Shown here: positions 54,902 to 56,960 of the stretch, piece after piece
Numbering within the stretch: position 1 is the stretch's first letter
Layout of the letters: the number at the start of each line of letters is the position of its first letter
Virus record (IMG/VR): IMGVR_UViG_3300030330_005091
Coordinates: 1-64,000 of that record
Strand: one strand, 5' to 3'
Source: a virus
Taxonomy: Duplodnaviria > Caudoviricetes
Length of the DNA: 64,000 nt
Translations under genes and position numbers: made by a program
The notes under the pieces: generated by a model
Seen by the model: only the letters and a program-made list of their open reading frames with translations
What the model was told of the DNA's origin: nothing
Database searches by the model: none

Positions 54902-55150
54902 TTATCTATGCTTTTTTTTAATTATTTGCCAATCAAATACAAACACAATTGGCTTTTCATTTTTTTTGTATGGCACACTTTTTTTTCGCAAAGCGTCAAC
55001 ATCTTTTTTGTATATTATAATAGCATCCCAGCCATCAGCATCCCAACCTTTTTTAGAAGTTATTCTTTTTTTTAATTTTACGTGAATATTTGGGCCAGCA
55101 AATGATTTAACTAATATTACATCACCAACTTTGTATTTTGATTTTTTCAT
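54902..55150 (-). CDS. Small basic SH3/KOW-like hypothetical protein
   Basis: YKVGDVILVK...; immediately after tRNA-Thr. Confidence 0.65.
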   Translation of the reverse strand: MKKSKYKVGDVILVKSFAGPNIHVKLKKRITSKKGWDADGWDAIIIYKKDVDALRKKSVPYKKNEKPIVFVFDWQIIKKKHR

Positions 55151-55157
55151 TTGTAAG

Positions 55158-55233
55158 TGGAGCCGCCTATCAGACTTGAACTGATGACCTACGGTTTACA
55201 AAACCGTTGCTCTACCAACTGAGCTAAGGCGGC
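55158..55233 (-). tRNA. tRNA-Thr(UGU)
   Basis: GCCGCCT/AGGCGGC acceptor, GCTC-GAGC D stem, ACGGT-TT TGT AA-ACCGT anticodon arm, TTCAAGT T loop, encoded CCA; 76 nt. Confidence 0.96.
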
Positions 55234-55382
55234 GTTATTTTTTCTGTTGTGTTTTCAAGCTTTTGTTGAATCTCAAAAATTGATTGTCCATGCGGTATAA
55301 GATGTGATAAAAACCAAAGATAAACCATCATACCTATCAATACTGACATAAAAGCTTGTAATACTAAATCGCCTACATCCAT
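55224..55382 (-). CDS. Small single-TM hypothetical protein (52 aa)
   Basis: MDVGDLVLQAFMSVLIGMMVYLWFL...; fills the gap between two tRNAs; stop lies inside tRNA-Thr; no clear RBS. Confidence 0.45.
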   Translation of the reverse strand: MDVGDLVLQAFMSVLIGMMVYLWFLSHLIPHGQSIFEIQQKLENTTEKITPP

Positions 55383-55394
55383 ATAGTAGGTAGG

Positions 55395-55487
55395 CTGGAG
55401 GGGAAGGATTCGAACCTTCAAGGTGAACTTTCGTAAATCACCGCCCGGGAAACAGCCGGGTGCGTTTGCCAATTCCGCCACCCCCCA
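55395..55487 (-). tRNA. Atypical class-II-like tRNA, anticodon GUU, 24-nt variable region
   Basis: TGGGGGG/CCCTCCA acceptor + G73; GCGGAATTGGCAAACGC D arm; CCCGG-CT GTT TC-CCGGG; GGTGA/TCACC variable stem; GAAGG-TTCGAAT-CCTTC; no encoded CCA. Confidence 0.85.
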
Positions 55488-55496
55488 AAAATAAAA

Positions 55497-55590
55497 CCGG
55501 TTTTCTGTCTAGAACTAGGATAACCGAAAACCTTTGCCTACGTGACGATCGGCAACCACGTTCCGCTTATAATGCGAGCAGAACAGCGCA
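55497..55590 (-). ncRNA. Candidate structured RNA (pseudoknot plus hairpins)
   Basis: TGCG/CGCA and GTTCTGCT/AGCGGAAC interleaved stems; TTGCC/GGCAA; GGTTTTC/GAAAACC; GC-richer than its surroundings. Confidence 0.4.
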
Positions 55591-55595
55591 GAAGA

Positions 55596-55658
55596 TTATT
55601 TGCAGCAGCAATCACACTCACAAGGTGCAATGCAACCGCAACAGTTACATTTTTTCAT
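55596..55658 (-). CDS. Cys-rich micropeptide MKKCNCCGCIAPCECDCCCK (metallothionein-like)
   Basis: 20 codons plus TAA, 9 Cys, GGAGG RBS 7 nt upstream; below the ORF-track size cutoff. Confidence 0.7.
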   Translation of the reverse strand: MKKCNCCGCIAPCECDCCCK

Positions 55659-55687
55659 GATTAACCCTCCCACAATAGATAGACCAG

Positions 55688-56164
55688 TTACGCATCAAAT
55701 GTAAGAGTTCCGTTATCAGTTTCTACAGAAACACTCCAACCTGAAATAAAAGGCATTACTTTCATAAAATTTTCATATGGAATTTGAACTTCAGCTGTAA
55801 GAGTAGTGAATCCACGTTTATGGTCATACTTTTCTGTTGAGTATTCAATTAATTCAACATCGTAAAAATTTTCAGTAATTGTATTTGCAAGATATTCTTC
55901 GAATTCATAACTTCCTCTTTCATAATCCTCAAGATAATCTTCAGAGCGAAGATGTTCAATTACATTTCCTTGCCATCGAGTTCTTACATCAAGCCCTGAT
56001 TGTGCTATAAGTGACGCAAATTCACTAACTACCGATGTTTCAGATAAAGCAGTTTCAATTTCTGTTTCGTTAAAATGAAACACATCTGCACCTTCTTCGT
56101 AGCGAAGATTAATCATAGCATTATTGGTCAAATTTAATGATTGTAGCCGCTCTATTGTGTTCAT
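55688..56164 (-). CDS. Hypothetical acidic protein
   Basis: Probable start MNTIERL at 56164 with GGAGG RBS. Confidence 0.75.
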   Translation of the reverse strand: MNTIERLQSLNLTNNAMINLRYEEGADVFHFNETEIETALSETSVVSEFASLIAQSGLDVRTRWQGNVIEHLRSEDYLEDYERGSYEFEEYLANTITENFYDVELIEYSTEKYDHKRGFTTLTAEVQIPYENFMKVMPFISGWSVSVETDNGTLTFDA

Positions 56165-56165
56165 G

Positions 56166-56342
56166 TTATCTTCCTCCAGAATTGCTGCCATCAACGCGCT
56201 CAGTTAGATATTTTACATCGCCAGCAACAGATGTTTTAAACTCTCTCAACTCATTTTGAAGAATATAAATCTGATCAACAAGTTGATTTACTCTTGCTTG
56301 CAATTGTTCTGTTTGTTTTGTTAGTTGTGTTGTTGTAGCCAT
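56166..56342 (-). CDS. Small coiled-coil protein (58 aa)
   Basis: MATTTQLTKQTEQLQARVNQLVDQIYILQNELREFK...; AAGGAG RBS; heptad pattern; not in the ORF track. Confidence 0.7.
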   Translation of the reverse strand: MATTTQLTKQTEQLQARVNQLVDQIYILQNELREFKTSVAGDVKYLTERVDGSNSGGR

Positions 56343-56382
56343 TGGCTTCTCCTTTTGTTTAATATTATAATTTTAATTAATG

Positions 56383-56459
56383 TGGCTGCCCCTCGCGGAC
56401 TCGAACCGCGGACCCGCTGATTAACAGTCAGCTGCTCTAACCAACTGAGCTAAGGGGCA
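56383..56459 (-). tRNA. tRNA-Asn(GUU)
   Basis: TGCCCCT/AGGGGCA, G73, CCA; GCTGA-CT GTT AA-TCAGC; CGCGG-TTCGAGT-CCGCG; 77 nt. Confidence 0.96.
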
Positions 56460-56960
56460 CTACCATAAATAATTTTTCCAAAGTTCACTAATTTGATTTT
56501 TGCTTACCGTTCTTAAGATATTTGCTTTTGGTCTAATTGGCATCTTTAATGGTATCATACCAGATTCTTTAGTAGTTCTGCAGCCTTTTTTTTGATTACA
56601 CTTCATACAAGACGCTACTAAATTTTCCCAAGTGTTTTTTCCGCCTTTTGATTTTGGTAAAACATGGTCCATTGTAAGTTTATCAGTCGGAAAATAATTT
56701 GCGCAATATTGACATTGATTGTTATCTCTCCACACAATGTTTGCCCTATTACATGCAACAGTAGTAAATCTAAATTTTACTATAGTCTTTAATACTATCA
56801 CGGCTGGTAAATTAAAAGCATTAGATGGTGATCTAATTTTTTTATCATATGTCTCTACTGGTGTGGCTTTTCCAACTATACACATCACTAATGCTTCCAG
56901 AGCATCAATAACTTCTATTGGTCTATACGACGCGTCTAACTTTAAAGCCATCATGTCCAT
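56460..56960 (-). CDS. HNH endonuclease (McrA-like)
   Basis: LDASYRPI...PAVIVL...RD..QCQYC...TMDHVLPKSKGG..TWENLVASCMKCNQKKG. Confidence 0.92.
   Translation of the reverse strand: MDMMALKLDASYRPIEVIDALEALVMCIVGKATPVETYDKKIRSPSNAFNLPAVIVLKTIVKFRFTTVACNRANIVWRDNNQCQYCANYFPTDKLTMDHVLPKSKGGKNTWENLVASCMKCNQKKGCRTTKESGMIPLKMPIRPKANILRTVSKNQISELWKNYLW

Follow-up and report, generated by a model that had tools for sequence, protein, structure and literature searches.

The copper metallothionein of Neurospora crassa has about 25 residues with 7 cysteines, and the beta-domain of vertebrate metallothioneins uses 9 cysteines to hold three divalent metals. Metallothioneins are small proteins, rich in cysteine, in which metals are bound in thiolate clusters and which as a rule contain neither aromatic residues nor histidine; their low-molecular-weight criterion is under 7-10 kDa and their usual length is 24-75 residues (PMC1808422). 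The superfamily is delimited by such properties and not by homology (PMC1808422). Clusters of three consecutive cysteines (CCC) are rare among them and occur in the Cd/Zn thioneins of Tetrahymena subfamily 7a, with a module ending in C-x-C-C-K (PMC1808422). The micro-peptide of the phage locus analysed here resembles the smallest metallothioneins and the beta-domain in being tiny, in its CxC and CC motifs, in the lack of aromatic residues and histidine and in its fixed number of thiolates, nine being the three-metal count. However, it is shorter and denser (20 residues, 45% cysteine), is encoded by a phage and has no sequence relationship to these proteins. With the Tetrahymena thioneins it has the CCC cluster in common, its own C terminus reading C-x-C-x-C-C-C-K, whereas those proteins have 99-162 residues in repeated modules, are eukaryotic and are metal-inducible (PMC1808422). 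The latter likeness is one of pattern and may be convergent.

Runs of cysteine codons are also found in the mycobacterial 'Cys ribulon' (Canestrari et al., 10.1101/834739), in which leaderless polycysteine short ORFs lie before genes of cysteine and sulfur metabolism. There, a paused ribosome opens the RNA duplex that hides the next gene's ribosome binding site (10.1101/834739). The phage ORF is similar in that it is a very short, presumably unannotated ORF with runs of cysteine codons at the head of a transcript. It does not look leaderless, however: it has a strong Shine-Dalgarno sequence, GGAGG 6-10 nt upstream of the ATG, and a promoter-like box further upstream, and it is followed by a structured RNA and tRNA, a tmRNA, a membrane protein, a thioredoxin or unassigned genes instead of cysteine and sulfur genes. 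In place of a duplex that hides a ribosome binding site, the phage locus has an untranslated RNA next, with no conserved pairing to the ORF and a folding score no better than shuffled sequence (z = -0.69). The sequence and cysteine count of the phage peptide are conserved, and the RNA that follows it also exists alone. Attenuators of the trp and his type combine a leader ORF with alternative terminator and antiterminator hairpins and an intrinsic terminator, whereas the phage locus has no terminator-like site in window positions 55100-56500 and its RNA is conserved without the ORF. T4-type phages carry small mobile cassettes consisting of a promoter plus an ORF. The phage locus resembles these, and phage 'morons' in general, in its very small ORF with its own promoter-like box and in the clean gain and loss between conserved neighbours; its box is different, and no flanking stem-loop was identified at the phage cassette.

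The window (the whole stretch of DNA that was analysed, 64,000 nucleotides) comes from an IMG/VR virus record of 195,690 bp, rated complete, of which it covers the first 64 kb. The following features were located in it:

55688..56167, minus strand: upstream gene of 159 amino acids (context), used as synteny anchor, with 45 IMG/VR relatives

55675..55682, minus strand: promoter-like box CTATCTAT of the CTAnnTAY type, which accompanies the micro-ORF

55666..55670, minus strand: Shine-Dalgarno sequence GGAGG, read directly, 7 nt 5' of the ATG

55596..55658, minus strand: micro-ORF including its TAA stop, from direct reading and its conserved frame, length and cysteine skeleton

55488..55595, minus strand: GC-rich structured RNA of about 108 nt (context), starting 6 nt past the micro-ORF stop

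55393..55487, minus strand: tRNA of 95 nt with a long variable arm and anticodon GTT (context), found with ARAGORN and Rfam

Direct reading of the minus strand gave a micro-ORF of 20 sense codons at window positions 55658..55596, with the start ATG at 55658-55656 and the stop TAA at 55598-55596. Cysteine is encoded at codons 4, 6, 7, 9, 13, 15, 17, 18 and 19, that is 9 of the 20 residues (45%), and the peptide contains no aromatic residue, no histidine and no signal peptide. Along the minus strand, the 159-aa gene stops at 55690-55688, the box CTATCTAT comes just past this stop codon, and GGAGG, 7 nt and the ATG follow. The initial annotation, which had described a 20-codon ORF with nine cysteines and GGAGG 7 nt upstream of its ATG, was correct in both coordinates and letters. 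ORFs as small as 20 codons are generally overlooked by gene callers.

When the 64-kb window was simulated 100 times with a first-order Markov model, the methionine-started ORFs of up to 40 codons reached a maximum of 7 cysteines, and none of them had 8 or more. The nine-cysteine ORF pattern occurred a single time in the whole 195,690-bp record, in which the long ORFs contain 0.9% cysteine compared to 45% in the micro-ORF and no second short coding-strand ORF approached nine cysteines. The micro-ORF is neither a chance ORF nor a simple repeat of TGC or another triplet.

The 159-aa protein had zero PHROG matches and zero Pfam matches above cut-off, and its 45 IMG/VR relatives share 40-86% identity with it. 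A micro-ORF was found at the same place in 17 of these 45 loci. Sixteen were intact, with the 20-codon nine-cysteine ORF, GGAGG and a CTAnnTAY-type box on the same strand downstream of the anchor; in one of the loci (L003) the anchor gene is separated from the cassette by an additional, inserted gene. The remaining copy (L012:3511-3549, plus strand) was shortened or decayed: it has 12 codons and 6 cysteines, part of its interior is lost in frame, and the stop comes early. It was the sole damaged copy seen. In the other anchor loci the stop of the 159-aa gene is followed at once by the GC-rich RNA, and box, Shine-Dalgarno sequence and ORF are all absent. A further sample was picked by a 16-nt word of the downstream RNA and was hence blind to cysteine. 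Its 22 true loci comprised 14 intact ORFs, 1 shortened ORF and 7 loci without the cassette, and no further frame-broken copies were present among them.

For wider scans a DNA pattern was used that required ATG and eight cysteine codons at shared positions and left the ninth cysteine free. In IMG/VR it gave 77 matches, about 40 of which were genuine members and the rest TGC-type repeats. Across 185,579 bacterial and archaeal species, represented by one genome each, 1 genuine member was found among 86 pattern matches; it lies on a 1,755-bp contig binned as Rickettsiales (L163), directly before a phage-type tmRNA arrangement. A metagenome scan with a slightly tighter pattern yielded at least 119 contigs, including Tara Oceans scaffolds; the peptide is thus abundant in metagenomes of the ocean. 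Most of the matches in giant viruses and bacteria were TGC-type repeats giving poly-cysteine and were discarded. One apparent member with 10 cysteines (L098) was also rejected, as it lies antisense within a 467-aa ORF and has no Shine-Dalgarno sequence. The genuine members were nearly restricted to viral sequence, and the nine-cysteine peptides form a large family that is seen almost exclusively in uncultured phages of the ocean.

Taken together, the viral, genome and metagenome scans gave 115 distinct DNA versions with a Shine-Dalgarno sequence. Exactly nine cysteines were encoded in 115 of the 115. The invariance of eight of them is partly circular, as these were imposed by the search in the large pattern-derived sets; the synteny-anchored set (n=17) and the RNA-anchored set (n=15) are free of this bias. 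The ninth cysteine was found at position 6 (61 versions), 2 (33), 11 (19) or 3 (2). Peptide length was 20 residues in 97 versions, 22 in 11, 21 in 6 and 19 in 1. The CxC, CC and CCC motifs were kept across the 115 versions, and aromatic residues and histidine were missing from 113 of them.

Both TGT and TGC were found at each of the eight fixed cysteine columns, Gly8 was encoded by GGC, GGT or GGA and Pro12 by CCT, CCA or CCG. The stop at codon 21 in the 20-codon subfamily of the window was TAA, TAG or TGA, and all three stop codons are in use across the family. Third positions were variable in 19 of the 20 codons, compared to 8 of the 20 for second positions, and at the 11 codons left free by the pattern pN/pS was 0.53 with a pS of 0.58. 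Among the residues other than cysteine, Gly8 was kept in 61, Pro12 in 66 and Lys20 in 57 of 70 versions. Acidic residues were strongly preferred at positions 5 and 16, which were partly constrained in the metagenome pattern and free in the viral pattern. A GGAG core was located 6-10 nt upstream of the ATG in 111 of 133 unique cassettes. Because frame, start, stop position, Shine-Dalgarno sequence and cysteines are kept while TGT and TGC are exchanged, the micro-ORF is a real micro-gene under coding-type selection. The initial annotation had set conservation of the ribosome binding site, frame and cysteines with synonymous change as the test of its proposal, and this is what was observed across the 115 distinct versions, with TGT and TGC exchanged freely.

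Box, Shine-Dalgarno sequence and ORF were either wholly present or wholly absent at conserved loci, and the ORF therefore belongs to a unit of about 95 nt made up of these three elements. From this presence and absence, and from the several contexts in which the cassette was found, we infer that it is portable. Of the 60 cassettes that precede the structured RNA, 59 have a CTAnnTAn box at most 40 nt upstream; the figure is 12 of 14 for those that precede a tmRNA and just 15 of 59 for those in other contexts. The genes of the complete 195.7-kb genome are mostly on one strand (217 of 231 in a crude call), and the strict box CTA-[T/C]-TTA-[C/T] has 33 coding-strand copies in it. Fifteen of the 33 lie 8-50 nt before a gene start, compared to 1.6 expected (p ~7e-12), and the upstream box is a plausible phage promoter or regulatory site. 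It had been proposed that the box resembles the core of a putative late promoter. The motif does recur before genes; as to late timing, the genes preceded by the box gave nothing informative in sequence searches of PHROGs, Pfam and the PDB. Most of these genes are without matches in PHROG and Pfam, so that the phage lineage is very poorly characterised. A sigma-70 promoter scan was at chance level.

The 133 unique cassettes comprised 60 before the structured RNA, 14 before a tmRNA and 59 elsewhere. The gap between the ORF stop and the structured RNA was 1-8 nt in the 57 cassettes in which the 5' end of the RNA could be placed, and in the tmRNA cassettes (n=14) the stop lies 0-6 nt before the 5' G run of the tmRNA. 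The latter form a sister group (L059, L062, L163 and 11 more unique loci) with the phage tmRNA in place of the structured RNA; in the window itself, the place before the tmRNA is occupied by another small ORF. The structured RNA is present in at least 60 distinct versions, with or without the micro-ORF, and compensatory changes were seen in two of its stems, one of which has 9 and 3 double changes; no Rfam match to it was found at E<=1. The GTT tRNA holds the same position 3' of the structured RNA in two forms, and the form is independent of the presence of the micro-ORF.

Among the cassettes found elsewhere, a subfamily of peptides starting with M-C-x-C lies between a 1050-aa gene and the gene of a 64-aa hydrophobic, membrane-like protein. 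That the 1050-aa neighbour resembles SbcCD-type nucleases is our reading of the sequence and does not come from a database match. One member is located between an 83-aa ORF and a thioredoxin gene. At L080 and L099 (minus strand) a 22-residue member ending in tryptophan and acidic residues was seen directly upstream of a WCGPC thioredoxin. Clustering of the flanking ORFs gave at least 8 unrelated neighbour families and no constant partner. Annotated representatives of the neighbours were a cupin, HNH endonucleases and proteins without assigned function, and there was no maturase, protease, exporter or transporter among the annotated immediate neighbours. No metal-handling gene was linked to the micro-ORF. 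The complete 195.7-kb genome has two thioredoxin-fold genes, both far from the locus, and contains neither radical-SAM (PF04055) nor IscU-type scaffold genes.

Searches of Pfam, NCBIfam and PHROG with five family members gave zero matches even at E<=10. In DNA and protein searches no cultured-phage relative was found of the locus, of the 159-aa neighbour or of four other family loci; the matches of these loci to cultured phages were tRNA genes and one sugar epimerase only. A tblastn search of the peptide against cultured phages gave nothing, the query probably being masked by the low-complexity filter. Nothing relevant on phage metallothioneins or on cysteine-rich small ORFs of phages was found in the literature. 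The family therefore appears not to have been described previously, and would be metallothionein-like by its properties and without homology, phage-borne and of minimal size.

As there are no sequence family matches, the label metallothionein-like is one of composition and pattern. The size of 20 residues (19-22 in the family) is below the usual 24-75, 9 of the 20 residues are cysteine with CxC, CC and CCC in 115 versions, and aromatic residues and histidine are lacking from the window peptide and from 113 of the 115 versions; membership by sequence in a curated metallothionein family was not found in Pfam, NCBIfam or PHROG at E<=10. The minimal phage metallothionein of the initial annotation thus agrees with the family in its size, cysteine density, CxC, CC and CCC motifs, lack of aromatic residues and histidine and fixed nine thiols, as a resemblance in properties; the charged residues that neighbour the cysteines likewise suit how metallothioneins are defined in practice (PMC1808422). 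We give about even chances to the reading that the micro-peptide is a metal-thiolate peptide, metallothionein-like in function. The product of the cassette would be a free, trans-acting peptide of 20 residues, translated from the phage micro-gene. Its nine thiolates, with Gly8 and Pro12 as turn-formers and charged residues between the cysteines, could wrap around a small metal-thiolate cluster with a capacity of three divalent ions or several Cu(I) ions. In the infected cell such a peptide might buffer or scavenge Zn, Cu or Cd in the manner of a minimal metallothionein, or it might be a thiol sink. At the present locus one precursor transcript probably contains the ORF, as its 5' leader, together with the structured RNA and the tRNA. 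The small gap to the 5' ends of the RNAs is notable; in our reading the ORF would ride in the leader of a stable-RNA precursor, and a cut at the 5' end of the mature RNA would leave a short mRNA.

The same conservation data apply to a real trans-acting peptide that is not a metal store, which could be a knot stabilised by Zn or Fe-S that inhibits a host protein, a redox thiol peptide or a precursor modified by the host. Inhibitors of host proteins are frequent among small phage proteins. The kept Gly8, Pro12 and Lys20 suggest a defined peptide shape, and the conserved Gly8, Pro12 and charged residues are likewise compatible with binding to a host protein; one subfamily member, moreover, lies directly before a thioredoxin gene. 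We nevertheless consider a peptide of this kind rather unlikely. Nine cysteines are an odd number, which argues against an all-disulfide fold, and the peptide has no signal peptide. That the ninth cysteine can occupy any of four positions agrees better with a required thiolate count than with a surface that fits a partner protein precisely. In the case of a modified precursor, the complete 195.7-kb genome lacks radical-SAM and IscU-type scaffold genes and the annotated neighbours lack a maturase, protease or exporter. Cysteine-rich RiPP precursors (SCIFF/ranthipeptide) are characterised by an adjacent radical-SAM maturase, whereas the phage genome is without PF04055 and the annotated neighbours are without such an enzyme; a host enzyme is possible.

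As an alternative, the ORF could act in cis as a cysteine sensor: if Cys-tRNA is scarce, ribosomes pausing at the nine cysteine codons would change how the following RNA folds, is processed or is read through. Such a leader has a precedent in the polycysteine short ORFs of mycobacteria, which attenuate operons of cysteine metabolism (10.1101/834739), and the stop is so close to the structured RNA (1-8 nt in 57 cassettes) or to the tmRNA (0-6 nt in 14) that a terminating ribosome would cover the start of the RNA. However, sequence and covarying stems of the structured RNA are retained where the ORF is missing (7 of the 22 RNA-anchored loci), and the same peptide skeleton occurs inside protein-coding operons with no adjoining RNA gene. 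RNA without the ORF, and the ORF before a tmRNA or between protein genes, argue against a dedicated cysteine-sensing leader and for a trans-acting peptide. The genes downstream of the ORF are unrelated to cysteine, no terminator-like site follows the ORF in window positions 55100-56500, the ORF and RNA together fold no better than shuffles (z = -0.69), and the codon choice at Cys17-19 is free, with no kept pairing with the RNA. Conserved residues other than cysteine, a fixed length and exactly nine cysteines are also unexpected of a mere codon counter. The leader peptide that had been suggested to sense cysteine for the structured RNA and the atypical tRNA is, on the evidence of RNA without ORF, ORF without RNA, no tracking of the tRNA form and no terminator, very improbable. 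Still less credible is an ORF without a function of its own, either as a by-product of a mobile promoter cassette or as a spacer whose translation protects the transcript from Rho until the stable RNA emerges. The cassette with its promoter-like box does often precede untranslated RNA genes, and one decayed copy (L012) exists. A spacer would not, however, keep nine cysteines, Gly8, Pro12, the exact length and the Shine-Dalgarno sequence across 115 versions and several subfamilies with near-saturated third positions, and chance ORFs of the nine-cysteine kind were unseen in simulations. The metal-thiolate reading, on the other hand, is favoured by the fixed thiolate count together with a ninth cysteine that is movable over four positions, which fits a cluster of defined stoichiometry better than a binding surface or a codon counter.

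A bolder form of the metal-thiolate reading is that ocean phages encode the smallest and most cysteine-dense family of gene-encoded metallothioneins known and express it from the 5' leaders of stable-RNA precursors. We put this forward tentatively and would expect it to be wrong somewhat more often than right. If true, a single primary transcript would give both a metal-binding micro-peptide and a functional RNA (a tmRNA, or a pseudoknotted RNA with a tRNA), and phages would exert control over Zn, Cu or thiol chemistry in hosts living in trace-metal-poor seawater. If the peptide binds metal, it would represent a new minimal class of metallothioneins and the first that is typical of bacteriophages, and it would single out metal or thiol handling as a host function under phage control in waters where the availability of Zn, Fe and Cu limits microbes. 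The micro-ORF is a conserved gene in many viral genomes that is invisible to annotation pipelines. A count held at nine while the ninth position varies offers a natural experiment in the stoichiometry of a cluster, and a peptide of 20 residues is readily made by chemical synthesis.

Additional observations were made on the RNA genes and flanks of the locus. The two forms of the GTT tRNA, as seen in L001-L033, are a normal tRNA-Asn of 76-77 nt and a form of 92-97 nt whose D arm is Leu-like and whose variable arm is long. A tRNA-Thr lies after the GTT tRNA, and upstream of the locus the window has a normal tRNA-Asn as well as a complete tmRNA. At the flank of the locus, an ORF of 58 residues at 56166-56342 (minus strand) is coiled-coil-like in appearance, and an HNH endonuclease at 56460-56960 (minus strand) has a stop that abuts the tRNA-Asn. 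The region of the RNA genes has the appearance of an insertion hotspot for small genes. By eye, the structured RNA has a 5' GCG/CGC stem, switching to GTG/CAC, that is pseudoknotted with the first stem, and a 3' stem that alternates between CCGGTT/AACCGG and GCGACTT/AAGTCGC. In the loop of the 3' stem (about 55500-55512, minus strand) a hexamer varies between relatives yet stays palindromic (TCTAGA, CATATG, CCATGG, TCATGA, CCTAGG), which suggests either dimerisation through kissing loops or a symmetrical site for a protein.
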